A stretch of 64,000 nt of DNA, taken from positions 46,934,001-46,998,000 of the forward strand of contig OZ024742.1 in NCBI GenBank assembly GCA_964016885.1. Direction: 5' to 3'. The notes beneath the pieces are model-generated. The model did not search any database. It was not told the DNA's origin and saw nothing but the letters and a program-made list of their open reading frames with translations. This document shows positions 18,998 through 63,976 of this stretch, piece by piece. How positions within the stretch are numbered: the first letter of the stretch is position 1; every line of letters starts with the position of its first letter. The translations under genes and the position numbers were made by a program. Origin of the DNA: Eledone cirrhosa (Eukaryota).

Positions 18998-21900
18998 TTC
19001 GTTTCTGAATTTGTTTACCAAGATTCATTATCTGAAAACGTGTGTTGAAACGGATATTGTTATACTTTGGGAGGGTCATGTTGCCAATAAGAAACACACG
19101 CACCAGGTTCTTTCACTCCGATTTATTATAAATTAAATTATAAATGAAAAAATTTATAAATTTCCGGTTGGTTGGTTGGTTCCACAACCGGACGGTTGTT
19201 CATATATTGTCAAAGTTCTTTCGTCACACATTCTGTGACCTCTTCAGTGACTGGGGTTTCTTTTCTTTGTTTTGTGCCTCTCCTTTGTTCTATCCTACGC
19301 CATCTTGTTTTTGTGTGTGTTGTGTGCTTAGATTGCGCATGTGTTACATCCGGGTGTCTGTGTGTGTTTTTATTTGTTTATTTATTTGTTTCTTTACATG
19401 TTACTAGGGCCCTTCTAAATTTGTAAGCTAATTCACCTCTAGGGGTTGTATTAATGAACATTACACTCTGGTATTTATTGCTATCATACCATGAGTTTCT
19501 TCTATTAACCTTATTCCTACTTCTTTCTATTCTATTCCAAAATCTGCTCCTATACTAAGGGCAGGTCCCATTTGTATCATTATTTACCATTTTTTCCCAT
19601 TTGGTTCTGGCTCCTCTATATACTCTGATTTTATCTCTCTGATTGTAACCAGAGAACTGCATTCGGTGAATCAAATGTTGTATGTGTCTCTATAGTTCTT
19701 TGGGGTTGCACATGCGGGACACGTTGTTTCTTATCACCCGTACTAAATCCGCAATCCATATGTTGATTTTGGTGTGATCCGAAACAGCTGAGTTTCGGTG
19801 GATCAGATATTTGGAAGTCATAGGTTTGGCATAATGGGAATGGAGGATTGTTTTTTTTGTTATTAATAGTTTCTAACCAGAGAACTGTGTCTAGTACAGG
19901 TAATCGATGGTTGGGGTGTTTGCTTGGGTAATCTATAGTAACTCTAATACTCTGGTGGATGGAGTTAGCTATTTGCTGGATGCTTTCCGTGGTGTTTTTC
20001 TCTAATTGCTGACTGTTTTCTAGTGGGGGTGTTTTTACTACGATGTTTATATCATCAACGTAGCGAGAGTACATTATCAGGGTTAAGAGGTTGTTCTCTT
20101 CTAATTGTTCTTTAAGTGTATTGTCCCAGCATACCATGAATAGATTAGCTATGTCACCTGCAATGCTAACACCAATGGCTGCTCCTTACTCTTGGGCATA
20201 TGTTTTTCCATTAAATTTGAACATACGTTCCTTAATGGTTAGTTTTATAGTGGCTCCCACCGCATGTGCAATCATTTTCTTTAGTTCATCATGGTTTTCG
20301 GGGGTCTGTATGGCTCTGGTCCACCCGTTCTATCTTTCTGTGTGGGTTCTCTTGGTCATTAAGTTAATGGTCGGTGGTCTGCCTCTTGCTGGCCTTGTGG
20401 GAAAGAGGTTGCTAAGGTCATACGCATCTAGATAATTATTACTATAAGTAAGTTTAAGTAGGGGTCCCAGCTCACTGGTATCAATCCTTACGATCAGGGA
20501 GAGGAAGTAGGAAAGTCTGTAGCTACTAGCAATGTTAGCTCCACAGACTGGCCGTGTTGCTGGTCATGTGACTGGATCACTGTTCGTCTTATAGTCTTTT
20601 CGAAGCCCATACAACGCTGGCATTGTTCCAGGCCTGGAACTTGTTGGCAGTCCGTTTATTGGGCTGCATTATGTTTGTCCACATCATCATATGAGCGTTG
20701 AGGGTTTTCTCCCTCTCCTCATGCTTTTGTGGTGTTACTTCTCTTGTGTTAGTGATGTGAGGTTGCATTGCCTGGATGTAGTTTGACAGACTGTCAACCG
20801 ACATTCTGCCAGACTTGTCTGTTGGAAAGCATGCAATCTCTCCATCACGTGAGCGCTGCATGAGCTTACGCAAGCCATTTGCAGAATTTTCTCCCAGTTG
20901 CTGGGCTTACATTCTATTTTTCTTCTGTTCTGTAATATTTCTAAGTTTAGATCTAGCTATATTAAATTGTGATTATGTTTGTTCATCGACCTGCGACGGC
21001 AATTGCGTGCGCTTGTTAAAAGCTAAAGTCGTGGCGAGGACTCGTCGTAGGTCGAAGGACTTATCGGAAGGGTTATAAAAAGTAAAATTCCAGACTGCTG
21101 CGTTATGTGTTCTATTGCTATTGTTATTGTTAGTTGTGTTGTTTCTATTTCTATTTCCACCAACAGCCTCATGGTTGTTTCTATGTCTCTCATTATTACT
21201 CCTGTATCTTTCCTCTGGCTCATTGTTATTATCTACTCTATTTTGTGTGTCTGTATGTTCGTCCTGGTTATTTTGTCTGTCAGTATCGATAGTCTCCCTT
21301 CATCTTTCAATCCCATTACTTTCCCTTACATCTGTGTTACTGTCATTATCTGTTTTCTCTTGTCTGTGTGTCTGTTAAGATTGTGGTGGTGAGAGGCATA
21401 GGATGTGTGTGTGTTCTTGTTGATGTGTGTTGTTGTTGATGTGTGTTGTTTTTATTGTTGTTGTCTCTGTGTATGTTGTTATTATTGTTGTGTGTGTTGT
21501 TGTTGTTGTTGTTGTTTGTGTCTGTGTGTCTGTTGTTGTCTCTGTGTATGTTATTATTGTTGTTGTGTGTGTTGTTGTTGTTATCATTGTTTGTGTCTGT
21601 GTGTCTGTTGTTGTTGGGATGTGTGTTGTGTGTTGTGTGTGCGTATGTTTTTACTTTTGTTTTTGTTATTGTTTTTGAGGCTCGAACGTAATTTTGTAAA
21701 TTATTTTTCTATTTCTGACAAGCATCTTATTATGTGTTGCATATTTAGGTGGTAGCTGTAATATGGATAATTCATCAGGGTCTACTGTAGTGTTGCCGTA
21801 TATATTTGTGTTGTTGAATTCGTCCGTTAATGGTATGTCGGCCATGGTTATACCATCAATCCTATCTGGATATTTATGTCTATTCTCTGAAGTTTCTTGG

Positions 21901-22140
21901 TTTAGTTTCATCTGTTTGAGCCACGTTAATTTCTTGTTAAAGTGTTTGTTGCATTCTTGGATGATGTACTTTTATTTTTCGTGTATAATGTTTATGTATT
22001 CTAATTCTTCTTTTTGTGTGGTGATCTTAGTTATTTCCTATATTAGGTTACGCTTATGTTTTTCTTGATGACTTAATTCTCTGTAAATCTTTTTATGTTT
22101 AGAATTAGTATTCGTTTCAGCCTATCTGCTTGTTTTTCAT
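18998..22140 (-). mobile_element. Penelope-like element, inverted internally deleted copy (family A)
   Basis: LPPKYA, CFPTDKSGR and YSRYVDDI motifs, with a pLTR at 18998-19405 containing an HHR. The GIY-YIG region is missing at the ~19405 junction and there is a second deletion at ~20487. Confidence 0.9.
19209..19251 (-). ncRNA. Minimal type I hammerhead in family A pLTR
   Basis: GUCA-CUGAAGA-G-GUCACA gaaug UGUGAC-GAAA-GAAC-UU-UGAC. Homologues lie at 61011-61053 (+) and, with the core deleted, at ~24372-24403 (+). Confidence 0.8.
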
Positions 22141-24557
22141 GTCACACTACATCCAGGCAATGCAACCCCACATCACTAACACAAGAGAAGTATGAACACA
22201 AGAGCATGAGGATAGGGAGAAAACCCTCAACGCTCATATGATGATGTAGACACACATAATTCAGCCCAATAAACGGACTGCCAACAAATTCCAGGCCTGG
22301 AACAATGACGTGCCAGCGTTGTATGGGCTTCGAAAGCACCATAAGACAAACAGTGACTCAGTCACAAGACCACCAACACGGCCAGTCTGTGGAGCTAACA
22401 TTGCTAGTAACTACAGACTTTCCTACTTCCTCTCCCTGACCGTACGTCCCATCATTGATATGTCCCCGGATATATGTGACAGCGCGGAAGACCTCAGCAG
22501 AATCAGAGAAAATAACCGATCTAGGGACCTAACATACTGTATAATAGGTAGTATGGATGTTGTGTCCCTATACCCATCCATTGACGTGGAATTTGCTGTG
22601 GAGAAATGCGTAGAAATGATCAGTGAGAGAAATGTTGAATTCCCTGGGATTGATACCGGTGTGCTGGGTCTCCTACTTAAACTTACTTATAGTAATGATT
22701 ATCTAGATACGTATGACCTTACCAACCTCTGCCCCACAAGGCCAGCAGGAGGGAGACCACCTACCATTACCTCAATGGCCACGAAAACACACACAAAAAG
22801 ATAGAACTGGTGGACCAGAGCCATACGGACCCCCCAAAACCATGATGAACTAAAAAAAATGATTGCACATGCGGTGGGGGCCAGTATAAAACTAACCCTT
22901 AAGGAATATATGTTGAAATTTTATGGAGAAATATATGCCCAAGAGTAAGGAGCAGCCATTGGTGTTAGCATTGCAGGTGACATAGATAACCTATTCATGG
23001 TATGGTGGGACTTAAAGAACAATTAGAAGACAGCAACCTCTTAACCCTGATAATGTACTCTCGCTACGTTGATGATATAAACATCGTAGTAAAAACACCC
23101 CCACTAGTGAACAGTCAGGAATTAGAGAAAAACACCACGGAAAGCATCCAGCAAATAGCTAACTCCATCCTCCAGAGCATTAGAGTTATTATAGACTACC
23201 CAAGCAAAAACCCCAACCATCGATTACCTGTACTAGACACAGAGCTCTGGTTAGAAACTATTAATAACAAAAAACCAATCCTCCATTCCCATTATGCCAA
23301 ACCCATGACTTCCAAACATCTGATCCACCGAAACTCAGCTGTTTCGGATCACACCAAAATCAACATACTGATTGCGGATTTAGTACGGGTGATAAGAAAC
23401 GTGTCCCGCATGTGCAACCCCGAATAACTAGAGAGACACATACAACACTTCATCCACCGTATGCAGTTCTCTGGTTAAAATCAGAAAGATAAAATCAGAG
23501 TGTATAGAGGAGCCAGAACCAAATGGGAAAAAATGGTAAATAATGATACAAATGGGACCTGCCCTTAGTATAGGAGCAAATTTTGGAATAGAATAGAAAG
23601 AAGTAGGAATAAGGTTAATAGAATAAACTCATGGTATGATAGCAATAAATACCAGAGTGTAATGTTCATTAATACAACCCCTAGAGGTGAATTAGCTTAC
23701 AAATTTAGAAGGGCCCTAGATAAACTTAAACTAAATATTAATACAGTAGAAAGACCAGGTACCTTCATAAAAACACTTATTAGTAATACATACCCTTCTC
23801 AAAGACCTCCCTGTATAGATAAGAAATGCATAACCTGTAAACTAAGCCCCCATATTAACTGTAAAACTAGAAACATAGTATATAGCATAAGATGTACTGA
23901 AGGACACGGTAAAGATAAGAATATAGTGTACATAGGTGAGACAGTATAGTCGAACCATTAGATGAACACTGGCGAGACCTTCAAGATAGTAAAGAATCAT
24001 CTGTACTACACCAACATGCTAAAATAGAACATATGGGCAAATTAGAGAACATAGAAATAAAAATAAAATCTACACACAGAAAAGACGCAATGTTTAGACA
24101 AATCACAGAGGCAATAAACATAAATGAACTCCAACCAAATTAAATAGAAAACATGAATGGAATAGCAACATCACAACTTACAATTAAGGACAAAATGAAA
24201 ACCCACAGACATAAAACAAACAACCAACCAGTAACATGTAAATAAACAAATAAAACACACACACAGACACCCGGATGTAACACATGCGCAAACTAAGCAC
24301 ACAACACACACAAAAACAAGATGGCGTAGGACAGAACAAAGGAGAGGCACCAAACAAAGAAAAGAAACCCCAGTCACAGAATGTGTGACGAAAGAACTTT
24401 GACAATATATGAACAACCGTACGGTTGTGGAACCAACAAGCCAACCGGAAATTTATAAATTTTTAAATTTATAATTTAATTTATAATAAATTGGAGTGAA
24501 ACAACTGGTGCGTGTGTTTCTTATTGGGAACATGACCCTCCCAAAGTATAACAATAT
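22141..24557 (+). mobile_element. Penelope-like element (family A): RT and GIY-YIG fragments plus pLTR
   Basis: PALYGLRKHHK, PPTRPVCGA, SMDVVSLYPSI, YSRYVDDI, CxxxxCxxC and NIVYSIRC...YIGET, with multiple stops. The pLTR at ~24230-24557 ends in (TA)n. Confidence 0.92.
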
Positions 24558-25530: not shown

Positions 25531-25926
25531 TACGATATTAAATAAATGGAAACTATATTTATAAAACCATATTTATTTCATTATATATATTTCAGGGATA
25601 TCATATTTCATATCATAATTCTTCTTTCTATCTATCTCTCTATATCTATCTCTCTCTATTTAGTTGCATGCATTTCTTCTTTTTCTTCGTTTTTCTTTCT
25701 TTTTTCTTTCTTTTTATAACTGTCCCTAACATTTTTCACTACCAAATCAACTTTTTAAATGGAAGATGAAGTTGAAAGGTATGTCAAATCTATCTATTTA
25801 TAAGACTGTTTATATTGTATTTTGTCTGAAGAAGGCATAACATATTTTTAATATGATATCCCTGAAATATATATAATGAAATAAATATGGTTTTATAAAT
25901 ATAGTTTCCATTTATTTAATATCGTA
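25531..25926. mobile_element. Foldback element with ~77-bp inverted arms and a hammerhead
   Basis: 25531-25607 is inverted at 25850-25926, which ends at (TA)n. Confidence 0.8.
25818..25883 (+). ncRNA. Type I hammerhead ribozyme
   Basis: UAUUUUGU-CUGAAGA-AGGCAUAACAUAUU uuu AAUAUGAUAUCCCU-GAAA-UAUAUA-UA-AUGAAAUA, with palindromic stem III. Confidence 0.78.
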
Positions 25927-25980: not shown

Positions 25981-26018
25981 CCTTTTGAAAAGCAGAAGAA
26001 CTGCGAAACCGGTAAAGG
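25981..26018 (+). ncRNA. Minimal type I hammerhead with U3-A8 core (UUGAAAA)
   Basis: CCUU-UUGAAAA-GCAG aagaa CUGC-GAAA-CCGG-UA-AAGG. There are five copies in the window. Confidence 0.8.
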
Positions 26019-28013: not shown

Positions 28014-31000
28014 TATAAATATATTGGAAATCGAGAGTGGAGTATGCCAGGCAAACGAGCCAGTGGGAAATGAAGGTGAAGAGGTTGAGAGAACGGAGGA
28101 AACATCCGAAGCAGACAATGATCTAAATGCTGAAATAAATAATACCTGGAACAAAGATACGGTCATTGAGGAGATGAATGCTGACGGGCTAGGACAAGAT
28201 TTGGTTGATATTCTAAACTTAGTGGTAGATGAATTGAACAATGATAGTGGGAAACCTATGAACCTAAGATTTGTAGACAAGAAAAAGTTAAAAGGAACAA
28301 CAGCTAAGGTAAACAAAGTGATCCCATACATTGAGGCGAGGAGACTTCACCAGTGCAACAATATCCTCAAAGCAACAGCAAATGAGGTGAGGAAATTACT
28401 TGGCATAACAGCGAGAGGAAACAACAAACAAGAAAGATCAGAACCTTGGTGGAAGAAACGACTGAATGGTCAAATCAGGGAAATGAGAAATGACATTGGA
28501 AAGCTTGAGTCCCTACTGAATGGGACACTAAAAAACATAGACACTAAAAATAGACTGGAAATAAAGTACAAAACTAGGAGGAAAAAGCTAAATATTATCA
28601 TAGAGGAACTGAAGCAACGCATTTTAGCAAAGAGTGTAAAAATTAGGCGATACGAGAGCAGAGTCAGTCAGTATAGACAGAACCGCATGTTTGACAACAA
28701 CTAGAAGATGCTGTTTGGACAGCTTGAAGGGAAAGAAAGAGGCAACGACTTGATCCCTGAGGCGGAACAAACTAAGACATTCTGGAGAGGAATATGGGAG
28801 CAGGATGTTAATCATAATGACCAGGCAGTGTGGATTGAGACAGTACAAAAGGAGATTAGTGAACAGGTACACCAACAAACTGATTTGAGTATCACAGTTG
28901 AAACTCTTAAGAGGCAGGCAAAAAATCTAACCAACTGGAAATCACCAGGTCCAGATGGTGTGCAGGGGTATTGGATTAAAAATATAACATCCCTCCACCC
29001 GAAATTGACAATCATGTTCAATGACTGCTTGATGTCAGGTGAGGTACCAGAGTGGTTGACAAAAGGTACCACAGTTCTGGTAATGAAAGAACGAATCAAA
29101 GGTTATTATGTTACCAACTATAGACCTATCACATGTCTGTCCGTAATGTGGAAACCGTTGACAAGCATTGTGTCTGAGGAAATCTACCATCACCTCCACA
29201 CAAACAAGAAGTCACGTGGTATAAAGGACCAGTTACTTATTGATAAGATGGTAATGAAGAATTGCAAGAGGAGACACACTGGTCTTGCCATGGGATGGAT
29301 AGACTACAAAAAGGCATTTGATATGGTGCCTCATTCTTGGATCACCAAAAGCCTAGAGATCTTCAAGGTAGCAGATAACATCAGACAGTTGTTGGGCAAA
29401 AGTATAAAGTCCTGGAAAACAGAGTTAACATCAGCTGGAGATTCCTTGGGAGGCGTGAGGATCAAGAGAGGTATCTTCCAGGGAGTAGTCTGTCCTCCCT
29501 GTTGTTTGTCCTTGCCCTGATGCCCCTGACCATTATACTGCGAAAGGTGAGAGCAGGATACAAGTTGTGAAAGGGAGAGATTAACATCAATCACCTCCTC
29601 TTCATGGACGATCTTAAGCTCTTCGTGAAGAGTAAGACGGAGTTGGATGTGCTTGTTGACACTGTCCGTATTTTCAGCAATGATATATGTATGCAATTTG
29701 GTATTAGTAAGTGTGGAGTCCTTGTGATGAAGAGGGGCAAATTGAGCAGAAGCAACGGAATCCAGGTACCAACAGGTGAGATGACAAAGGAAATTGACAC
29801 TGAAGAAGGATACAAGTATTTGGGTGTTCTGGAGGCTGATGACATCAAGAACAAAAAAAAATGAAGGAATTGATAAGATCTGAATACATTCGGAGAGTAA
29901 GGAGCGTATTAAAGTCATATCTGAACAGTAGGAATACGATAAGTGCAGTAAATTCCCGAGCTGTGTCTATTATTAGGTACAGTGCGGGAATTCTGAGATG
30001 GAATGTTGCTGAACAAAAAGAAATGGATAGTAAGACTAGGAAGCTATTGACTATCTACAACATGTTCCACAAGAAGAGTGATGTCTACTTAAGGAGATCT
30101 AAAGGTGGAAGAGGTCTTATCAGAATAGAGGACTGTGTTCAGATGGAGAAAAACAACCTGAACAAATACGTGACTGGTAGTAAGGAGCCAATGCTCAGAA
30201 TTGTACTGAAGGAGAGGACAATAGACCAGGGGATGTCCAAGGAGGAAATAATAACAAGGAGAAAGAGCAGCCTTCATGAAAAATCCCTTCATAGTAGCTT
30301 TTTTGAGAAAACTGAATTCAGAGATCCACACACATGGAACTGATTGAAAAGAGGAGACCTTAAAAAGGCTACAGAAGGAATGCTAATGGCTGCGCAAGAG
30401 CAGGCCCTCAAAACGAAGTGGCTGAAACACCATATTTACAAGGAGGAGGCTAGCCCACTGTGCAGGATCTGTGGAGAGAGAGAGGAGACTGTGACTCACA
30501 TTGTATCCGAGTGAAAACACCTAGCCCAGACTCACTATAAAGGCTGGAGACATCATGTGATGGGCAGGGTGATCCACTGGCACCTATGCAAAGTAAACAA
30601 TTTACCACATTCTGAGAAGTGGTATTAGCATAAGCCAGAGTCGGTGATAGAAAATGATCAGGTGAAGGTGCTGTGTGATTTTACGATACAGACGGACAAG
30701 AAACTGGAACACAATAGACCTGACCTGGTTGTTTGGGACCAGGAAAAAAGATCGTGCCTGATTGTGCATGTGGCCTGTCCATTCGACACGAGAGTGCAAG
30801 AGAAGGAGAGGGAGAAAATTAACCGATACCAGGACTTAAAGTGGGAGGTAAAAAGGATTTGGAACTGCCATGAAGTCAAAGTGATCCCGATTGTCATAGG
30901 CGCACTAGGTACTATCTCAAAAAGTTTCCAGGGATGGTTAAAGAAAATTGGCCCCGCACCCCTTTTTGGAACGCTTCAAAAGGCATGCTTGCTGGGCACA

Positions 31001-31110
31001 GCAAGAACCCTCCGATACGTCATGAATATCTGAGGATGCAGGTAGTGGCTTGATATTTATTTCAACAAACTTTCCAGTTAACTAACGTAAATGACTGAGA
31101 CTCAAAGAAC

Positions 31111-31167
<57 letters not shown>
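28014..31167 (+). mobile_element. R4/Dong-type non-LTR retrotransposon (RT plus restriction-like endonuclease), copy 1, disrupted
   Basis: WKSPGPDG, NYRPITCL, WIDYKKAFDMVPH, RGIFQG, FMDDLKLF, a CCHC remnant and RPDLVV..ACPFD..EKINRY, followed by an (AAT)n tail at 31110-31167. Confidence 0.93.
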
Positions 31168-34773: not shown

Positions 34774-37592
34774 ATGACGGCGAGGAGCCTTCACCAGTGC
34801 AACAATATCCTCAAAGCAACAGCAAATACGGCGAGGAAACTACTTTGTATAAAAGCGAGAGGAAACAACAGACAAGAAAGAGAAGAGCCTTGGTGGAAGA
34901 AACGACTGAGTGGTCAAATCAGGGAAATGAGAAATGACATTGGAAAGCTTGAGTCACTACTGAATGGGACACTAAAAAAATTAGGCACTAAAAGTAGACT
35001 GGAAATAAAGTACAAAACTAGGAGGAAAAAGCTAAATATTATCATAGAGGAACTGAAGCAACGCATTGTAGCAAAGAGTGCAAAAATCAGGCGATACGAG
35101 AACAGAGTCATTCAGTATAAACAGAACCGCATGTTCGACAACAACCAGAAGATGCTGTTTGGACAGCTTGAGGGGAAAGAAAGAGGCAACGACTTGATCC
35201 CTTTGGCGGAACAAAGTAAAACATTCTGGAGAGGAATATGGGAGCAGGATGTTAGACATAATGACCAGGCAGGGTGGATTGAGACAGTACAGAGGCAGAT
35301 CGGTGAGCAGGCACACCAACAAACTGATTTGAGTATCACAGTTGAAACTCTTAAGGAGCAGGCCAAAAAACTAACCAACTGGAAATCACCAGGCCCATAT
35401 GGTGTGCAGGGGTATTGGATTAAAAATATAACATCCCTCCACCCGAAACTGACAACCATGTTCAATGACTGCTTGATGTCAGGTGAGGTACCAGAGTGGT
35501 TGACAAAAGGTACCACAGTTCTGATAATGAAAGAGCGAATCAAGGGTAATGATGTTACCAACTATAGACCTATCACACGTCTGTCCGTAATGTGGAAACT
35601 GTTGACGAGCATTGTGTCTGAGGAAATCCACCATCACCTCCACACAAACAACTTGTTACCGGACGAACAGAAAGGATGCCGAAAGAAGTCACGTGGTACA
35701 AAGGACCAGTTACTTATTGATAAGATGGTAATGGGGAATTGCAGGAGGAGACACACTGATTTTGCCATGTGATGGATAGACTACAGAAAGGCATTTGACA
35801 TGGTGCATGATTCTTGGATCACCAAAAGCCTGGAGATCTTCAAGGTGGCAGATCACATCAGACAGTTGTTGGGCAAGAGTATGAGGTCTTGGGAAACAGA
35901 GTTGACATCAACTGGAGAATCCTTGGGAAGCGTGAAGATCAAGAGAGGTATCTTTCAGGGAGATAGCCTGTCCCCTCTGTTGTTTGTCCTTGCCCTGATG
36001 CCCCTGACCAGTGTACTGCGAAACGTGAGAGCAGGATACGGGTTGGGAAAGGGAGGGATTGCCATCAATCACCTCCTCTTCATGGACGATCTTAAGCTCT
36101 TCGGGAAGAGTGAGAAGGAGTTGGATGTGCTTGTTGACACTGTCCGTATTTTCAGCAGTGATATATGTATGCAGTTTGGTATTAGTAAGTGTGGAGTCAT
36201 TGTGATGAGGAGGGGTAGGTTGAGCAGAAGTAACGGAATCCAGATACCAACAGGTGAGATGATAAAGGAAATTGACTCTGAGGAAGGATACAAGTATTTG
36301 GGCGTTCTGGAGGCTGATTGCATAAAGAACAAAAAGATGAAGGAATTGTTAAGAACTGAATACATTCGGAGAGTAAGGAGCGTATTGAAGTCACATCTGA
36401 ACACCAGAAATGCCATAAGCGCAGTAAATTTCCGAGCTGTGTCTATTATTAGGTACAGTGCGGGAATTCTGAGATGGAATGTTGCTGACCAAAAAGAAAT
36501 GGATAGGAAGACTAGGAAGCTATTGACTATCTACAACATGTTCCAGTAGAGGAGTGATGTCGATAGACTCTACCTAAGGAGATCTGAGGGTGGAAGAGGT
36601 CTTATCAGCATAGAGGACTGTGTTCAGATGGAGAAAAACAACCTACACAAATACGTGACTGATAGTAAGGAGCCAATGCTCAGAACTGTACTGAAGGAGG
36701 GGACAATAGGCCAGGGGATGTCCAAGGAGGAAATAACATCAAGGAGAACGAGCAGCCTTCAGGAAAAAATCCCTTCATAGTACATTCTTTGAGAAAACTG
36801 AATTTAGAGATCCACAGACATCGAACTGGTTGAGAAGAGGAGACCTTAAAAAGGCTACAGAAGGAATGTTAATGGCTGCGCAGGAGCAGGCCCTCAAAAC
36901 GAAGTGGTTGAAACACCATATTTACAAGGAGGAGGCTAGCCCACTGTGCAGGATCTGTGGAGAGAGAGAGGAGACTGTGACTCACATTGTATCCGAGTGT
37001 AAACACCTAGCCCAGACCCACTATAAGGGCTGGAGACATGATGTGATGGGCAGGGTGATCCACTGGCACCTGTGCAAAGTAAACAATTTACCACATTCTG
37101 AGAAATGGTATGAGCATAAGCCAGAGGCGGTGATGGAGAACGATCAGGTGAAGGTGCTGTGGGATTTTAGGATACAGACGGACAAGAAACTGGAACACAA
37201 TAGACCTGACCTGGTGGTTGTGGACAAAGAAAAAAGATCGTGTCTGGTTGTGGATGTGGCCTGCCCATTCGACACGAGAGTGCAAGAGAAGGAGAGGGAG
37301 AAAATTAACCGATACCAGGACTTAAAGTGGGAGGTAAAAAGGATTTGGAACTGCCATGAAGTCAAAGTGATCCTGATTGTCATAGGCGCACTGGGGACTA
37401 TCTCCAAAAGTTTCCAGGGATGGTTAAAGAAAATCGGCCCCTTCACGCTTTTTGGAACGCTTCAAAAGGCATGCTTGCTGGGAACAGCAAGAACCCTCCG
37501 ATACGTCCTGAATATCTGAAGCTGCAGGTAGTGGCTTGATATTCATTCCAACGGACTTTCCAGTTAACTAACATCAATGACTGAGATTCAAG

Positions 37593-37623
<31 letters not shown>
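34774..37623 (+). mobile_element. R4/Dong-type non-LTR retrotransposon, copy 2, disrupted
   Basis: Same family as 28014-31167: QGDSLSPLLF, FMDD, CRICGEREETVTHIVSEC..RHD and RPDLVVVD..DVACPFD..EK, with an (AAT)n tail. Confidence 0.94.
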
Positions 37624-43678: not shown

Positions 43679-46600
43679 GTTCGGGAAAACGCCAATCAGA
43701 GCCACTAGGGGCGGCTAATGAACTCTGGGAAACTCGACCAAACCGTCATCTTTTTGTGTACGATCTGCAGTCAAAAAAATGTTTTCTTGTCGACACTGAC
43801 GCGTCACTAAGTATTTGGCCAGTCAGTTATCTAAAAAAACAACCCTTCTGTATCAAATATCAATTTACGAGCAGTCAACAACACGGCAATTCGAACGTAC
43901 GGGCAAATTTCGCTCCCTCTTCGGTTTAAAAATTTGCGTCGTAAATTGAAGTGGAAGTTTACTATCGCCGACTTGCCATACGCCATTTTGGGAGCGGATT
44001 TCCTCCACCATTTTTCCTTGTTTCTTGACATCCGCAGACAACGACTTTTTGATGCTAATACAGGCCTATCGTTCGAGGGTACAAAGCCGGAGATCGCCAG
44101 AGTAAGCCCTGCTTTTTTCTTGGCTGAAGTGGCAACCAGTATCACAGTTTGTTAAAATCATTCCCACAGCTGACGCAAGGAAGATTACGAATTGCTAGCC
44201 CGGATCATGTGATTGAACACTTTATATCCACTACAGGTCCACCTGTTTTCTCACGTCCTCGAAGATTGTCTGCAGAGAAGTTGAAAGCTGCACGTCTTGA
44301 ATTCGACCACATGCTGGAATTAGGAATAATTCGGCGTTCCACAAGTCCTTGGGCATCGCCTCTACATATGGTACTTAAATCTTCTGGTGATTGGAGACCG
44401 ACGGGTGACTACCGACGCTTAAACGCGATTACTGTGCCTGACCGTTATCCAATACCGCATTTGTAGGATTTTGCATTGTCATTGCAGGGTTGCAGAATCT
44501 TTTCTAAGCTTGATTTGATCCGCGCTTATAATCAAATTCCGGTTAAAAAGGAGGATATTCCAAAGACTGCTATTGCCACTCTTTTCGGATCATTCGAGTT
44601 CCTCATTATGCCTTTCGGACTTAGAAATGCTGCAAGTACCTTCCAACGATTCATGGATGATGTCACTCGTGGTCTCGATTTTGTTTATACGTATATCGAT
44701 GATGTACTGATTGCTAGTTCTTCTCCTGAACAACATTCCAAGCATCTGGATCTTGTATTTCGTCGTTTACAGAGATATAATGTTCGTATTAATGCTTCCA
44801 AGTGTGTTTTCGGCTCGACCTCACTAACATTTTTAGGCCATCTGATTTACGCCGATGGTATTCGACCTCTTCCTGAGAAGGTTAAGGCAGTATTGGATTT
44901 GCCTCCGCCAGGTTCACTGCGACAATTGCGTCAATTCTTAGGCCTTGTAAATTTTTATAGGCGATTCGTGCCTAATTGTTTCAACCTGCTGTTCTCGTTG
45001 ACAGACATTTTTAAAAATTGCCGGCGTAAGAATATGGACATTTCCTTAAATAAAACGCAGCTTGAGGATTTTAAAAAAGTGAAAAAGGCGTTAGCGAGCG
45101 CGTCTTTGCTCGCCCACCCAGTACCCAACGCCGAGCTATCGCTCTGCGTTGATGCGTCGGATACCGCCGTGGGCGCAGTCTTACAGCAGAAGTGTGAGGG
45201 GTTACAGCAACCACTCGAGTTCTTTTCGAGAAAGTTAAAGCCTGCCGAAACTCGCTATAGCACCTTTGGAAGGGAGCTATTAGCAATTTATTTATCAGTG
45301 AAACATTTTGTTCATGTACTAGAAGGTAGAACGTTCACTATTTTCACTGATCATAAACCTTTGACGTTTGCTCTTCGAACTAAAGCAGACAAATACTCGC
45401 CCAGAGAAACGAGACATCTGGACTTCATCTCAGAATTTACGAACGACATTCAACATATTCCGGGTTCTTTGAATACAGCGGCCGATGCGCTGTCTCGCCT
45501 GCCGATCGCATCGATTTCGTCTTCCGAGGAGATAGATTTACATCGAATGGCAGCTGCTCAACCCACTCTCGAATCGTTAGATGTTACATCGCCAGAGTTT
45601 GTACATTGCAAACTGAAATACATTCCGATCTCAACTGCTGACGGACAAATACTGTGTGACGTTTCGTTGGACTCACCACGACCTCTAGTCCCAGTGGAAC
45701 ATCGACGAACTGTGTTTCTCGCTTTACATGGCATTTCTCACCCAGGAGTATCAGCCTCAGTAAAACTCATAACAGCCAGATTTTTCTGGCCTGATATGAG
45801 ACGTGACATTGCTGCTTGGTGCCGTTCCTGTGTCGCTTGCCAAAAGTCAAAAGTTCATAAGCACGTTAAAACTCCTCTCGGAACTTTCACCTGTCCTGAT
45901 GCCAGATTTCATCACATTCATGTGGACATCGTCGGCCCGTGGCCGATTAGTCGTGGTTATTCGTATATTTTGACGATCGTTGACCGTTTTTCGCGTTGGC
46001 CTGAAGCCATCCCTATGACAGATATCACTGCCGAAACGACAGCGCGTACTCTCGTATCTGCATGGATCGCTCGTTTTGGAGTACCCACCACAATAACAAC
46101 AGACCGCGGTCGTCAATTTGAATCGAACCTCTTCCGTGAAATAACACAAATTATTGGCGCTACTCGCATAAGAACCACGGCATATCATCCAGCATCAAAC
46201 GGAATGGTGGAAAGATTTCACAGACAGCTTAAAGCCTCTTTAAGGGCTTCAATGGACTCTTCACGTTGGAGTGAGTACCTACCCATTGTGTTGTTAGGTA
46301 TTCGGTCGAAAATAAAGGTGGACCTTGGGTTCTCCCCGGCCGAATTGATTTATGGTACTCCTCTTGCGTTACCGGGACAAATGCTTGCTCCTGTTGATCT
46401 TGCTTCGCAGGATCCCGCTTCCTACGTGTCCCGGCTTCATTCTTACTTCCAGGATTTATCACCGATGGACACTAGGAAGCAAACTGTAAAAACTGCCGTC
46501 CCAAGGGAAATTGCCTTGTGGACACATGTGTTCGTTAGAGACGACGCCGTGAGACCCCCTCTTCAACGGCCGTACTCTGGACCCTATCGTGTGCTTGCTC

Positions 46601-46836
46601 GCACAGACAAACATTTCACACTGGACATTCGGGGTTCCAGGGAAACGGTTTCCGTTGATCGTCTCAAACGAGCAAACCTGGACAATGACACAATGACACT
46701 TGAAACTCAAATGCCACCTTCTTTTTCTTTGCCACATACGCCTATTTCTTCCCCCCCCCCCCACCATCAACATACAGAACTACGACCCGTTCTGGGCGAT
46801 GGGGGCATTGGCCCCGTAAGCTATGCAGTAATATAA
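43675..46836 (+). pseudogene. pol: Gypsy pol (protease, RT, RNase H, integrase), disrupted in its 5' part; 44476-46836 is open
   Basis: [87 protein letters not shown] and GPY. Confidence 0.95.
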
Positions 46837-49084: not shown

Positions 49085-49214
<130 letters not shown>

Positions 49215-49357
49215 ATATATATATATATATATATATATATCTATATCTATATATATATATATATATCTATATCTATATATATATATATATCTATATATAT
49301 ATATATATCTATATATATCTATATATATATATATATATATATCTATATATATCTATA

Positions 49358-49432
<75 letters not shown>

Positions 49433-49445
49433 ATATATATATATA

Positions 49446-51395
49446 ACGAAGGAAATGTGGTAAGTAACCAGGTGGACCATTACGCACCAAAGTACTCAAT
49501 ACTTGAGGTAGTAGAGTGGGTAATAGGAACCAGTAAGACCCCGACAGCTGAGCTCAAGCCGTTTCGACGGCTAATTCTGGACTAAATGAAAATTTATCCT
49601 GGTATTTAAATAGCCGATCTTCTCAAGGGGTAATTCCATATATGGTCAAAGTGATTGTCAAAAATCAGTAGTAATTCTGTGGTTGCAAATTAGTAGGGGA
49701 GATGGTGGCTAAACCTGCCAGTAGGAGAAAGAGGGGAGGGGGTGGAGTAGACCCAATCAAGCGTTGGTAGTGCCAGCTACAGCTGGGCATGAAGTCAAAG
49801 AAGATACAGGGGAGGGGGAGGGGAGGAAGTCGGAACGGTAGGTGCAACAATGGGGGGGTAGAAATATATAGGAAAGAAAAAATACTGAGAGTGAAGAAAA
49901 GTGTAAAGAAAAAAGTAAAGTAAATTCTACGACCTAGGTCTCTAGCTATTGTTAGGCTAGAATAAATAAATAAATAAATAAAGAAAGAAGTAAAGAAGGA
50001 AATAAAGAAATAACGAAATAAGTAAAAGAACTAGGTGGGACGGATTAGGCAAGGACCCTTTTAAGAGGTATAAGTACGTAAATGATACGGTGACGGGTCA
50101 ACAAAAGGGGCCAAAATACTAAAGAGACTACCACGAAATAAACAATAAAGGTTTCCATCCCGGGCACAATGCCAGCAACCACCCAGTGCAGCAAAGTGAA
50201 CTAGTACGAGATAATAATTCTGAGTCCCGAGAAAAATATATACTAATGCTAACTCTAAAAGATCTAAAACAAGCTACATGAAAGTTCGTACGAAGTAAAG
50301 GTAGAATACGGAAAAATAAATTCAGAATCCACCCCGCCCAAAAGAAAAGCGAAGAAAGAAATACTGAAACGAAAAAATAAGGCATAAGTGCCACTAAGAA
50401 AAATATAGAGGGCACAGAGAATAGTGGGAGCGGTCGGAAAAAGGGGACAAGTATCCGGGGTCTAAACCAACTGCTATAAAGGGCGGAGTCCGCCAAATCT
50501 ATCATAGACTAGGGGAGGGGGTGGGGGTACTAAGGCTACAAGGGGCCAAAGGGCAGCCTCGGGTGGGCGAGAAAAGACGCCGACAAGGGAGAAGAGCTGG
50601 CGTAGAAGGACTAAGGAGAGAGGGGGGAAGGAAATAAAGGAAGCGATAAAAGAATACAAAGAAGATCTTACGTCTCCCTTGGCAAGCAGGGGTTACCCAT
50701 TGCAAAATCGGCAAGTGGGGTGTTATAGCCCTAGTCTACCCCCCCCCCCCACCCGGGTCATTATGGGGTTTGAGGGCGAGGTAAGTCCTACGCAATCTAT
50801 GTTTACATGCAGTAACCAGTTCATCTTTCTTGTTTAGGAGTTGGTCCGTCGAAAACAGCATTTGTAAAGTTTCCTCCGAGCATAAATTGCACGGACGGCG
50901 TCCTCCCGTGTAAGAATTGGCTCTGGACAGTAATCTCCAAGTGAGATCATAGGTGATGTTGTTGTCCTTGAGGTCCCATATGTGGCCCGAAAGTGTAGTG
51001 GCGTGACGCCGGGCCGGGTTTCGGAAGGTATGTCTATGTTGGTATAGCCGGGTCTTGAAGTCACATGCGGTAAGTCCTATATAGGCTTTGTTGGAGGTAT
51101 CCGTCCTCACGTTGCACTGGTAGATCACATTACGGTCTCTGCATCTATTGTCGAGTGGGCAAATGGATCTATCCGGGCAGTTACACCTCCTGGTCGGTTC
51201 TCCACTGCTATTTAGGTTATTTCTGCCATCGGGGTTGAGTTTTTTGTTGTTAGAGGAGACGATGTTTTGTGCGAAGTTTGGTGTAGTGCTGTAAGAGAGT
51301 TTGATGGTATTTTTGTTAATTATGTTGTGGTAGCGGTGTTGTAATGGGAAGTGTTTTTCAATGAGCCTAAAGAATAGTTTCCCGATGGGAAACTG
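49446..51395 (-). mobile_element. Penelope-like element family B, 5'-truncated (RT C-terminus, GIY-YIG, 3' region)
   Basis: KLSYSTTPN, CNC..ICPLDNRC, NVIYQC..AYIGLT..FKTRLYQH and CNLCSEE..LLNKKDELVTACKH (ORF 50736-51128 and upstream). The 3' end is at (TA)n. Confidence 0.9.
49538..49631 (-). ncRNA. Full type I hammerhead with U3-A8 core (UUGAGAA) and GUC cleavage triplet
   Basis: ACCCC-UUGAGAA-GAuCGGCUA[internal hairpin GGAUAAAU uuuc AUUUAgUCC]UAGCCGUC-GAA-ACGGCU ugagcuc AGCUGU-C-GGGGU. Confidence 0.85.
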
Positions 51396-54300
51396 ACGTA
51401 AAACTACCGGAAGAATTTACCAATGACCACACAGTAAATATCTATGGGAACACTTTAATCAGTAAACAGGAACAAAAAATCCTAAGGTTACCACCAAAAT
51501 TTGCCATCTACAAAAAGATTAACCCTATGGAATGCAAAACGGAGCTGGAAAAGTGTTTCACAAAAATACGTTGGAATGCAAAGGTAAACAACAACAACAA
51601 TAATAACAGTAGTAGTAATATAAACAATAACTCTGGGTATAGAAATAACAGCCATAACAATAACAATGGCAGGAAAGTGAGAAATAGTGATAATGGCAAT
51701 AATACTAGCGATAGACGGAACAACAACCACCATGATAATAATAATAGAAACGTTAACCACAGACACAGCAACAGTGACCACAGTAGTAATAACGGTAACA
51801 ATACGAACAACAACAACAGTGGTAATAATGGAAATAGTACATGTAGCAACATCAACAAAAACGAGAAACATAATAATAGTAACAACCACAATGGTAGAAA
51901 TAACAGTAACAACAACAACAATAACGGTGAAGTAAACAACAATACATCTAGCAATCATAACAATAATAATAATGCTAATGATAGAAACTACAACAACCAC
52001 CATGATAACAATAATAGCAACGCACACAACTATGACGATAGATATAACGACAACCCCTTAGAGAAACTATTTTTCAACCCAGCTGACAAAACATATAAGA
52101 TGGGTAATATCTATCCTACGAGGTTACCCTTTAATCAAAGAGTTTGCATACCACAGCAAATAGATGACGAGACGGAGGCACAGTTCACCATAGCTAGAAA
52201 TAAGATTAGACAAGTAGTAGACAGGTATACGATGAGACAGAGCAGACCAGAGGCCCAACAACTTGGGAGAAAACCTGTAGAAGGCATGGTTAGCCTCAAG
52301 CAGCGCACAAGGGATGGTGAGGTAGTGTGTCTACCCACAGATAAGTCTGGTAGGATGTCAATAGATAGCATGCCGAACTACATCGAGGCTATGCAACCCC
52401 ACATCACCAACACGAGCGAAGTTGCACAACAAACACACGATGGGAGAGAAAAAATCCTCAACGCTCACATGATGATGTGGACTGACATCCTAAAGCCAAG
52501 CAGACGCACTGCCAACAACTTCCAGGCGTCTAACAATGGCATACCACCCTTATATGGGCTCCGCAAAGACCACAAGACAGTCGGCGACCCGACAACAGGA
52601 CCACCAACAAGACCCGTATGCGGAGCTAATTTAGCTAGCAACTACAGGATCTCCTACTTCCTCTCAATGGTTATACGCCCCATAATACAGATGTCCCCAG
52701 ATGTATGTGAAAGTACAGAGGACCTCCTCAGCAGAATCAGTGAGTGCAACAAAAACAGGAGCCTATCCAACTGCATAATAGGCAGCATGGATGTGGTGTC
52801 ACTGTACCCATCCATTAACATTGATTTTGCTGTGGAAAGATGTGTGGAGATGATCATTGAGAGTGAGGTGGAGTTCTGCGACGTCGACACAGACGAACTG
52901 GGCCTCCTACTTAGACTTACCTACGACACTGACTACCTAGACAGCCATGACCTTAGATGTTTCTGCCCTAGTAGACCTATAAGAGGTAGACCCCCCACCA
53001 TAACCTCAATGGCTAAAAAGACTCCCATAGGAAGGTGGATTGGGTGGACCAAAGCTATATGGACCCCCCAAAAACACTGATCAGGTAAGAAAAATGGTCG
53101 CACATGCAATAGCGGCTAGTATCAAAACTACCCTAAAGGGCCACATATTTAAGTTCAATGAGAAAATCTACACCCAAAATGAGGGAGCAGCCATCGGCGT
53201 CAGCATAGCTGGTGATGTTGCCAACCTTTTCATGGTATGGTGGGATAGGAGACTTAAAGATCTCCTTAATGAAAGCTCCATAGACCTCATCATGTACTCT
53301 CGTTATGTAGACGATATCAATATAGTTATAAGAACACCCCCACTAGAGAGCACTAACAAGTTTGATTTAGAACGTAGCACGATGGAAAGCATCAAGCAGA
53401 TAGCTAATTCCATACACTAGAGTATAACTGTAACTATCGACTTCCCTTCCAAACACCCTAACAATAGACTACCTTTATTAGACACAAAACTCTGGATTAA
53501 CACTATAGACGAGAGAGCCCAAATTCTCCACTCACACCCATTAATACTATAGACGAGAGAGCCCAAATTCTCCATTAAACCCATGGCCTCCAAATACCTG
53601 ATACTCAAAAACTCAGCAATGTCCAGTAGTGCTAAGTTTAATATTCTGATTGCAGATTTGGTACGATTGATGAAGAATGTGTCCAGCATGTGCGACCCAA
53701 CAGAAATGGAAAGACACATCCAACACTTCATCAACCGCATGCAGTTCTTTGGCTACAACCAAAGAGACAGTGTCAGAGTATACGAAGGAGCCATGGAAAA
53801 GTATAAGACCCTCATAGAACTGGACATGAAAGGAATTTGCCCACTATACAGGAGCAAATCATGGAATAGCTTAGATAGGGCTAGACATAAGATAGGGAAG
53901 GCCACATCATGGTACGACAACCAGAGATATCAGAGTGTCATGTTTGTGGACGCCACCCCTGGAGGGAAATTAGCTAACCAGTGTAGAAAGGCCCTGAGAA
54001 AGACCCACTTAAAAATAAAGGTGGTAGAAAAGCCAGGAACCACCATAAAATCTCTGATCAGCAAAACCTACCCTTTTAAGAAAACCCACTGTACCAATGG
54101 GAAATGTATCATATGTAAGGTGAACCCCCGGATAAACTGTAAAACTAGAAACGTAGTCTATAGCATAAGATGTACAGAGGGTACTTGCAGAAACATGACA
54201 ACAACATACATAGGTGAGACAGCTCGTAGAATAGGTGAAAGGATAGACCAACACTGGGGGGAACTAAGAGGACGAAAAAACGGGTCAGTACTATACGAAC

Positions 54301-55020
54301 ATGCTAGACAACAACATGGCGGTAACATAGACAACATAGAAATTAGAATAATATCTAAACATAGGAATGACCCAGCAGATAGGCAAATCAGAGAGGCCAG
54401 TGAAATAGAAATTAGAAGACCAAAGCTAAACAGAAAGAATGAGTGGAACAACAACAACACCCAAACAAACAACACTGACCTAAGAGAAGTATAAATAAGT
54501 AAATAAAATAAAATAAAGTAAGATAAATAAATACATACACAAGCACAATAAGCACATAAACACACACTAGTCACCCAGCAGACACAACACTATACACACT
54601 AGTCACACAGCACACATAACACTATACACACACGCAAACGCATGCGCAAAGAAGACAAAATAAAATAAGATAAACAAACAAGCAAATAAATAAATAAATA
54701 TATAGACAGACTGAATAAAAAAAAATGGCGTAGACATACAACACAACAGGAGGAACAAAGAATATAACACCACTGACGATGTTGCAGATGTGCAACGAAA
54801 GATTTATATAAATTATGTAAACTATATATATGTGTTTGTGTCTATATTGTATCTGTATTATTTTTGACCGTCGGTCAGTCAATGGCAACATTGAGGACCG
54901 AGTAAGTTAGATCGCAGATATAAAAGACAGCGAGAAGCGAAAACCAACCAAACAGTGAGTGTGTTCTGTTATTAATTCTGGCAATATTACGCAAATATGA
55001 CCCTCCCCAAGTATAACAAT
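51396..55020 (+). mobile_element. Penelope-like element related to family A, near full length (two frame disruptions)
   Basis: ORFs 51527-53080, 53040-53420 and 53583-54494 carry TDKSGR, PLYGLRKDHK, DVVSLYPSI, GAAIG, RYVDDI and NVVYSIRC..YIGET..RIGERIDQH..RQIREA..LNRK. The pLTR has an HHR and ends cccaagtataacaat-(TA)n like family A. Confidence 0.95.
54773..54806 (+). ncRNA. Hammerhead core in PLE pLTR (stem I unclear)
   Basis: CUGACGA-U-GUUGCA gaug UGCAAC-GAAA-GAUU-UA. Confidence 0.65.
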
Positions 55021-55347: not shown

Positions 55348-55825
55348 AAGAAAAAGGGATGAAATCGAAAATGCAACTGAAGTCTTATTTTTTTTTTTAA
55401 ATATATATATTTATTTGGTTCCTTTACCGGTTTCGCAATTCTTCTGCTTTTCAAAAGGTGAGTTGAGATGGAGGGTCTTTGGTTTTTCTCACATCTGGTT
55501 GGTCTCTAAATTTATTATAATTATTGACAAACCAATCAAATTACTTCTCGAAAAACCTGGTTTTCGAGCCACTTTTTCCATATAAAACAAGTAACATTTA
55601 GAGACCAACCAGATGTGAGAAAAACCACAGACCCTCCATCTCAACTCACCTTTTGAAAAGCAGAAGAAATGCGAAACCGGTAAAGGAACCAGATAAATAT
55701 ATATATTTAAAAAAAAAATAAGACTTCAGTTGCATTTTCGATTTCATCCCTTTTTCTTTATACTTCCACTCGTGTAGGACACCTCGGTTATTTTTCATTT
55801 TGTAAAAAAAAACCTCACTTTCTAA
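55348..55825. mobile_element. Foldback of the U3-A8 pLTR-like family with two HHR copies
   Basis: 55348-55511 is inverted at ~55597-55760. HHRs lie at 55421-55458 (minus) and 55649-55686 (+), with (TA)n on both sides. Confidence 0.88.
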
Positions 55826-57045: not shown

Positions 57046-57403
57046 AAAAATTAAACGGGAACAAAACAGAGAGGCAGTACGAACAAAGGTTTGGGGTGGT
57101 GGTGGGGAACGACGTTTCGGGCATAAGCCCTTCTTCAGGTGAAAAGTGTATGGGAAGAGAGTTCCAAGGGTGTGTAGGGGAGGGGTGGAGAGACATATAG
57201 AAAAAAGGGGGTGAGAGGAAACGGTACAAATGAAATTAAATATGAAAGCATAATAAAAATAAAAAAAATACAAATAAACATGAAGTAAAACAGGTGGTGG
57301 AAGGGTGTGAGGCGGGTAGGGGTGGTGGCGGGTGGAGTGGGGAGAAGGAGGCGGGGTGTCCGAGCGGGGAGGGCTGAAGGTGGTGGTGTGTGTGTAGGTG
57401 TAC

Positions 57404-63907: not shown

Positions 63908-63976
63908 GTTTTATCTGATGAAAACACAAATATTATTGCTTGATGATGTTTGTTTTTGAAATGCGCATAATAAAAT
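63908..63976 (+). ncRNA. Type I hammerhead ribozyme (matching inverted copy at 62131-62199, minus)
   Basis: GUUUUAU-CUGAUGA-AAACACAAAUAUUAUU gcuu GAUGAUGUUUGUUUUU-GAAA-UGCGCA-UA-AUAAAAU, with a canonical core and palindromic stem III. Confidence 0.88.

Follow-up and report, generated by a model that had tools for sequence, protein, structure and literature searches.

A hammerhead fold with a changing 3-8 pair, likely an attenuated ribozyme, in the terminal repeat of a young Penelope-like element of Eledone cirrhosa

What the hammerhead ribozymes of Penelope-like elements (PLEs) do is treated as an open question (PMC8557442, PMC11167929). Hydra-clade PLEs were described by their DKT, RW(K/R), and CxCX5C motifs, a single ORF for reverse transcriptase (RT) and endonuclease, and (TA)n targets (PMC8557442). 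The headline feature of the motif analyzed here, U3-A8 in a Penelope hammerhead, is already known, and about 1,300 Schistosoma matches have been published (PMC4209133). Natural U3-A8 covariation was reported as active in vitro (Perreault et al. 2011, PMC3088659), and in another hammerhead, subjected to a full mutational scan, activity was restored by the G3-C8 swap alone (PMC9901934). The hammerhead of the Anolis Poseidon element PAc cleaves only with protein, and its dead-ribozyme mutants still insert in vitro (PMC11167929). Further literature consulted was PMC6765202, PMC7151607, and bioRxiv 10.64898/2026.07.22.740005.

The Eledone motif resembled the hammerheads of Hydra-clade PLEs (Craig et al. 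2021, PMC8557442) as a type I motif on the sense strand, downstream of a single ORF. Palindromic stem III, inverted truncated copies, a tail, and G10.1-C11.1, which occurs in several Hydra-clade PLEs, were also shared (PMC8557442). However, all 26 Hydra rows of File S2 carried C3-G8, whereas the Eledone family carried U3-A8, U3·G8, or C3·A8. Stem III measured 3-4 bp with a loop of 1-3 nt in the Hydra rows and 5-6 bp with a 7-nt loop in the Eledone family, and a Hydra loop II of at most 10 nt contrasted with a 54-nt arm (PMC8557442).

The minimal hammerheads of Schistosoma mansoni Cercyon (Cervera and De la Pena 2014, PMC4209133) were similar in having U3-A8 in Penelope terminal repeats, a long helix II, a short helix I, and many truncated single copies. 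In Cercyon hammerheads, helix III is not stable and dimers are considered necessary, whereas the Eledone motif is able to form helix III even as a monomer; it also does not have the extra base between positions 9 and 10.1 (PMC4209133). The PAc hammerhead (Frangieh et al. 2024, PMC11167929) is C3-G8 and was tested experimentally, whereas cleavage of the Eledone motif is predicted.

Host element of the motif

The window is a stretch of 64,000 nucleotides of Eledone cirrhosa DNA, and the coordinates of the focal features are listed in Table 1. As the original prediction had proposed, the motif lies in a PLE 3' end; the copy was 96-98% identical to intact copies. The motif stands 96 nt before the end of this copy, which adjoins the (TA)n tract. 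All 150 scored genome matches to the endonuclease part were 98-100% identical; therefore, the family is young.

Table 1. Features of the focal Penelope-like copy and its hammerhead motif, in window positions
Feature	Position	Strand	Remarks
5'-truncated Penelope-like copy, 1.94 kb of 3.55-kb unit	49447..51390	minus	Hydra-clade motifs, young
C-terminal ORF part: CxCX5C linker and GIY-YIG-type endonuclease	50736..51390	minus	motifs as in PMC8557442
Tail past motif	49447..49537	minus	5' leader of next ORF in tandem copies
(TA)n-rich tract, inferred target	49153..49446		at element's 3' end
Type I hammerhead-shaped motif, 94 nt	49538..49631	minus	sense strand of Penelope-like element
Stem I 5' strand	49627..49631	minus	5 bp, pairs with 49542-49538
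Stem I 3' strand	49538..49542	minus	
Core positions 3-9, U3 U4 G5 A6 G7 A8 A9	49620..49626	minus	U3 = 49626, A8 = 49621, A9 = 49620
Stem II arm, 54 nt	49566..49619	minus	G10.1-C11.1, small internal loop, at most 9 further pairs, long variable loop
Core G12 A13 A14	49563..49565	minus	
Stem III, 6 bp, with 7-nt loop	49544..49562	minus	49562-49557 pair with 49549-49544
C17	49543	minus	predicted cleavage 3' of C17, 49543|49542
Zone where most short copies begin	49577..49588	minus	34-45 nt before C17
Conserved initiator-like pentamer	49585-49581	minus	A at 49583

The eight long copies fetched all carried an open frame of 786-819 codons. The ORF was flanked by hammerhead motifs spaced 3,545-3,558 bp from each other, and its start codon followed about 200 nt after the motif. 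The unit measured 3.55 kb, with a 3' UTR of 1.1 kb. The protein contained DKT, RWR (R for K), CxCX5C, CxxC, and CxH motifs; its RT and endonuclease domains were recognized by motif and by eye against the sequences of PMC8557442. Pseudo-LTRs, partial tandems, an inverted 5'-truncated copy, and an optional tail were all present. The short copies were head-to-head inverted pairs with the 3' half only, unlike non-LTR retrozymes, in which non-coding repeats with a whole hammerhead in each unit follow one another head to tail. By these motifs the element would be filed as Hydra-like, with which the (TA)n insertion agrees; the unit of 3.55 kb exceeds the "generally under 3 kb" of the Hydra clade, which is a tendency and not a strict criterion. 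Pfam returned no match for the ORF or for four other PLE frames, bar one weak RVT_1 match. A protein search gave 1,472 matches, with 38-52% identity and uninformative names among the 120 matches listed.

Other repeats were noted in the window. A different, frameshifted Penelope-like element (51390-55017, plus strand) with a DKSG motif, a C-terminal GIY-YIG, and a long asparagine-rich insertion joins the focal copy head to head at a short palindrome near 51390. Comparison of this element with the focal ORF showed no similarity, and related copies of it at 22138-24174 and 19404-20906 were 67-74% identical. An LTR-retrotransposon pol frame of 789 codons with RT, RNase H, and integrase lies at 44467-46836 (plus strand), and a 2.8-kb direct repeat, 91% identical, at 28335-31137 and 34779-37623.

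Predicted fold and its conservation

The motif position, the predicted cut, and the minus-strand core were as originally proposed, and so were the 5 bp of stem I and the 6 bp of stem III in the window copy. The stem II arm was shorter than the approximately 58 nt first given (Table 1). Loop III, described as self-complementary, does hold a palindromic hexamer, but this makes up six of its 7 nt and not the whole loop. An inner hairpin in the stem II arm was predicted for the window copy, as had been claimed; 67% of its cells paired across the family, and a conserved inner hairpin was rejected since it was missing from the family consensus fold (RNAalifold).

The core positions U4 G5 A6 A9, G12 A13 A14, A15.1-U16.1, and H17 were complete, and three helices were present around the junction. 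Canonical C3-G8 was absent from the window copy, which has U3-A8 instead, and position 7 differed among subfamilies (G, U, C, A). Stem I is open-ended in the window copy. One of the stem III pairs there is a G·U; across the family, just 33 of 94 copies form the outermost pair of this stem. With 5-6 bp in the family, helix III lies outside the "absent or 1-4 bp" of the minimal dimer-dependent PLE hammerhead. The variable loop of the stem II arm was of near-constant length across the family.

The three-way junction was the minimum-energy fold of the window copy at a length of either 94 or 124 nt, and most stem probabilities were 0.6-0.97; the predicted fold of its subfamily was the best in the family. 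When 150/91 nt of flank were added, the predicted fold dropped to 0.04-0.29. A competing hairpin across G12-A14 can form (at least four of five pairs) in 89 of 94 copies, with a mean probability of 0.41 in young C3·A8 copies versus 0.17 in young U3-A8 copies. For the stem III 19-mer, the predicted self-duplex reached -26.3 kcal/mol versus -4.9 kcal/mol for the hairpin, a value matched or bettered by 72 of 630 loop permutations.

The reading of the motif as a chance or decayed product of a single copy was refuted, and we give it practically no credence. It drew on the folding energy, which was no better than that of shuffles (z -0.30), and on Rfam, which gave no match at gathering scores in the whole window and also missed the canonical C3-G8 motifs there. 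A descriptor of equal strength found one match in 30 approximate dinucleotide shuffles of the window on both strands. However, the motif occurs in thousands of copies, 22 of 159 sampled motifs were identical to that of the window, and stem II covaries.

The covariation check suggested with the original prediction was run on 94 distinct copies, chosen from 201 of normal length among 212 stored motifs. Paired cells amounted to 81%, compared with 28-44% in slid-partner controls. Three stem II pairs had changed on both sides, in 39, 14, and 43 of the 94 copies, these double changes being a few inherited events and not independent ones. RNAalifold (16 copies) recovered all three stems unaided. Stem I was paired in 85% of cells without real covariation; stems I and III gave no covariation signal because both barely vary.

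Comparison of majority letters between old and young groups showed no difference in ten core columns or in ten stem I columns, and 15 differences in 23 variable-loop columns. Identity of the UTR upstream of the motif was only about 50%, and the tail was conserved as well as the motif. U4, G5, A6, A9, G12, A13, A14, A15.1-U16.1, and C17 were fixed while the protein diverged by 30-35%. This invariance was partly imposed in the alignment, as the collecting patterns fixed part of the core for many copies; the same core was found in loci chosen by coding sequence. As judged from these comparisons, the hammerhead fold is under selection. Promoter or protein-binding roles could cause sequence conservation without catalysis.

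Copy ends and the edge zone in the stem II arm

Family copies ended at +20 (49523) or +96 (49447) from C17. Both points lie within the 5' leader, 76 nt apart, and we infer that they are two RT start sites. They match the two start sites shown for PAc (PMC11167929), where two copy end points past the cut likewise define a tail, the templates are uncut at the site, and the targets are AT-rich. The start sites of PAc lie 111-118 nt into the ORF, with a tail of 30-40 nt, which differs from the leader position and the spacing of the Eledone ends (PMC11167929).

All 30 loci selected by the tail ran through the predicted cut, and none began within -3 to +5 of it. Instead, 26 of them began 19-52 nt upstream of the cut, inside the stem II arm; two began at -6 and -8, and two contained the whole motif. 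An inverted partner was present in 23 of the 30 loci, ending at +18 to +22 and starting mostly at -34 to -45. Among copies in 30 loci chosen by the 3' half, 35 of 43 started inside the arm. A tally of 561 copies was biased and imperfectly de-duplicated, and only its 30-locus set was used. Genome-wide, the pattern for the 3' half of the motif gave 60,234 matches and that for the 5' core about 7,400, a ratio that is rough because the two patterns differ. Copies that are cut at the site, whatever the rate, might never integrate.

The 5' edges peaked around 49583. The pentamer there, in alignment columns 50-54, was retained in the young groups as well as the old ones, with 88-98% conservation per column, and we take it to fit the initiator consensus. 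The edge zone suggests a transcription start, or a stall of the reverse transcriptase, inside the ribozyme motif. An internal promoter with an initiator is described for Drosophila Penelope (PMC2377424). A TATA box 29 nt before the edge zone was considered and rejected as a conserved feature; it is present in the group of the window copy and missing in the old groups. Breakpoints of the short inserts differed and the inserts carried subfamily-specific letters; therefore, they look newly made and not amplified as a unit. Self-priming on an antisense template, by which head-to-head palindromic junctions were earlier interpreted (PMC3846280), would be a third option for the head-to-head short inserts. 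The literature searched, as far as it was available to us, contained no report of copy ends clustered in loop II. The clustered 5' ends sharply predict a transcription start inside the ribozyme.

A copy with an intact ORF (L140, near 2945) also had its 5' end within the arm of stem II, in the zone where the short copies begin.

States of the 3-8 pair and candidate explanations

A single pattern collected 7,162 young copies for a tally of positions 3 and 8. U3-A8 was the family norm (5,388 copies, 75%), followed by the unpaired C3·A8 (1,742, 24%); G8 occurred in 32 copies, of which 22 were U3·G8 and 10 C3-G8. The family consensus is thus not C3-G8, and U3-A8 is no chance double mutant, which the original prediction had named as its possible undoing. 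The older clade gave 249 matches with A8, with U3 in all 100 among the matches listed, and 29 matches with G8, 20 with U3 and nine with C3, several of the latter a base short.

A motif was also held by 24 of 30 loci chosen by coding sequence, and 27 motifs spanned the core; among these were 10 with U3-U7-A8, nine with U3-G7·G8, and one with C3-G7-G8. The oldest group in these loci comprised the nine U3·G8 motifs and the one with C3-G8 (with G7). The U3·G8 subfamily contains at least a few dozen copies. No examined subfamily had C3-G8 as its main state.

Subfamily groups were named from the trees and from reading of the copies. The DNA trees formed a ladder from U3·G8 to old U3-A8 groups, to U3-A8 with C7/A7, and then to C3·A8, which made up a long grade. 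Nested within this grade on starred branches was the youngest of the U3-A8 groups, to which the window copy belongs. Terminal branches shortened along the ladder (0.05-0.14, 0.04-0.10, 0.03-0.07, 0.01-0.04, and 0-0.04; 39 of 48 loci in this tree). The protein tree, from which six of 28 rows were dropped as short, mixed, or duplicate, united C3·A8 with the youngest group (93/97), while its root among the older groups was weakly supported (25/33). A topology uniting groups X and Y, both U3-A8, to the exclusion of C3·A8 was only marginally rejected (p-AU 0.0497). In light of these trees, reconstructed from the sampled copies, the 3-8 pair is shown to have been lost and then regained. From terminal branch lengths only, we infer that U·G would be the earliest state within the family. 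C3-G8 is likely the ancestral state because the 26 Hydra rows and the one motif shared by three metagenome relatives (36% protein identity) are all C3-G8.

Reading the C3 copies as a core that lost position 7 and gained an extra A was rejected, as it misfits the U3 groups with their U, C, or A at position 7; in the C3·A8 subfamily, where G7 dominates, the reading could still apply. A small branch of the C7/A7 group (L085, L086, L106) had G8 in three of four sampled copies and is possibly a minor U3·G8 sub-lineage. One motif (L229:1430-1524, minus strand) had a 5' half like the oldest group and a 3' half like a younger one, a possible template switch inside the arm.

The original prediction took a 3-8 pair to be required and the motif to be a functional ribozyme on that ground. 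This argument was unsupported, as the C3·A8 and U3·G8 subfamilies were both amplified. Of the functional compensated ribozyme as a whole, the selected hammerhead fold and U3-A8 as the norm stand, but subfamilies with unpaired 3-8 positions spread, and none of the 30 copies starts at the cut.

The reading that we favor, by a modest degree, is that the hammerhead fold, which sits in the terminal repeat of this young Penelope-like element, is likely an attenuated ribozyme; cleavage is predicted. Given the copies that read through the cut to +20 or +96, the RNA that gets copied would be uncut. The start sites lie downstream of the cut; therefore, fast cleavage would presumably part them from the coding RNA, and this loss would favor a ribozyme that is slow or gated by protein. 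Cleavage would be slowed both by a weak 3-8 pair and by the competing hairpin across G12-A14. Residual cleavage would trim tandem or read-through transcripts, possibly through a dimer via the palindromic stem III or with the aid of the element's protein. For attenuation, the stems and most of the core were kept while the 3-8 pair shifted among U·G, U-A, and C·A, and all subfamilies spread; the protein-dependent cleavage of PAc is a published parallel (PMC11167929). Against it, the subfamily of the window copy has the best predicted fold and is back to a Watson-Crick 3-8 pair, and real activity could be selected there.

This regained pair would also suit an efficient monomeric hammerhead, in which U3-A8 fully substitutes for C3-G8 and tandem transcripts are cut to unit length. 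The complete core, the stem III of 5-6 bp, the active junction as the minimum-energy fold of the window copy, the motifs spaced by one unit around intact ORFs, and the reported in vitro activity of U3-A8 (PMC3088659) all agree with it. We nevertheless consider it improbable: the C3·A8 (1,742 copies) and U3·G8 subfamilies were amplified, no copy of 30 starts at the cut, U-A was no rescue in the full mutational scan of another hammerhead (PMC9901934), and the motif is without a stem I loop for tertiary contacts unless the flanks provide one.

Similarly doubtful, in our view, is a catalytically dead relic, retained because its fold would serve the protein of the element as a binding or folding element and would also house an internal promoter. 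Such a relic would explain why C3-G8 is the main state in no examined subfamily, why two subfamilies with a non-Watson-Crick 3-8 combination were amplified, and why the tail is as conserved as the motif; the 60,234 or so matches to the 3' half versus about 7,400 to the 5' core also point to a protein that copies RNA with or without the whole motif. However, the core positions from U4 to C17 listed above stayed fixed at 30-35% protein divergence, the main states keep a pyrimidine at 3 and a purine at 8, and position 7 varies like that of active hammerheads.

The attenuated ribozyme can be joined with the edge zone in a single account, which we offer tentatively and hold to be possible but not probable: transcription would start in loop II of the element's own hammerhead, and the single whole 3' hammerhead would be kept slow. 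The long arm would house the initiator, so that the 5' end of the RNA would hold half a ribozyme and no cut in cis could occur there. RT primed at two internal sites near the 5' end would run off after 55-140 nt, and pairs of run-off products joined head to head would account for the tens of thousands of short palindromic inserts. With a slow 3' hammerhead, the 3-8 pair of the lineage could have changed from U·G to U-A and then C·A and returned to U-A while the element stayed mobile.

The literature searched, with the supplements of PMC8557442 as the only supplements covered, contained no amplified C3·A8 or U3·G8 subfamily, and Lunse et al. may already describe such variants. Likewise, the part of PMC3088659 available to us lists no amplified C3·A8 or U3·G8 family among its natural core variants, whereas the Eledone family has both. 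Within this single lineage, which was mobile throughout, the core variants form a natural series ordered by age (U·G, U-A, C·A, U-A), and this series could show whether cleavage rate matters to the element.

Other hammerheads were observed in the window. A second, unrelated minimal family occurs at 25985-26014 (plus), 55454-55425 (minus), and, as a third copy, within 55611-55762 (plus). Its motifs carry U3-A8 and a stem III that is short and palindromic. They gave 11,263 genome matches, often arranged as close inverted pairs, with U3-A8 in all 100 among the matches listed. Canonical C3-G8 hammerheads of other repeat families lie at 25826-25875 (plus), 63915-63969 (plus), 62192-62138 (minus), and 19247-19213 (minus), the pair at 62-64 kb being inverted. 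By eye, a minimal hammerhead-like motif with a canonical core and a 2-bp stem I was seen at 57111-57138 (minus), at the end of a GT-rich repeat. On the minus strand of another sampled locus (L103), a U3-A8 hammerhead of a third kind, in which stem III is longer, was seen once.
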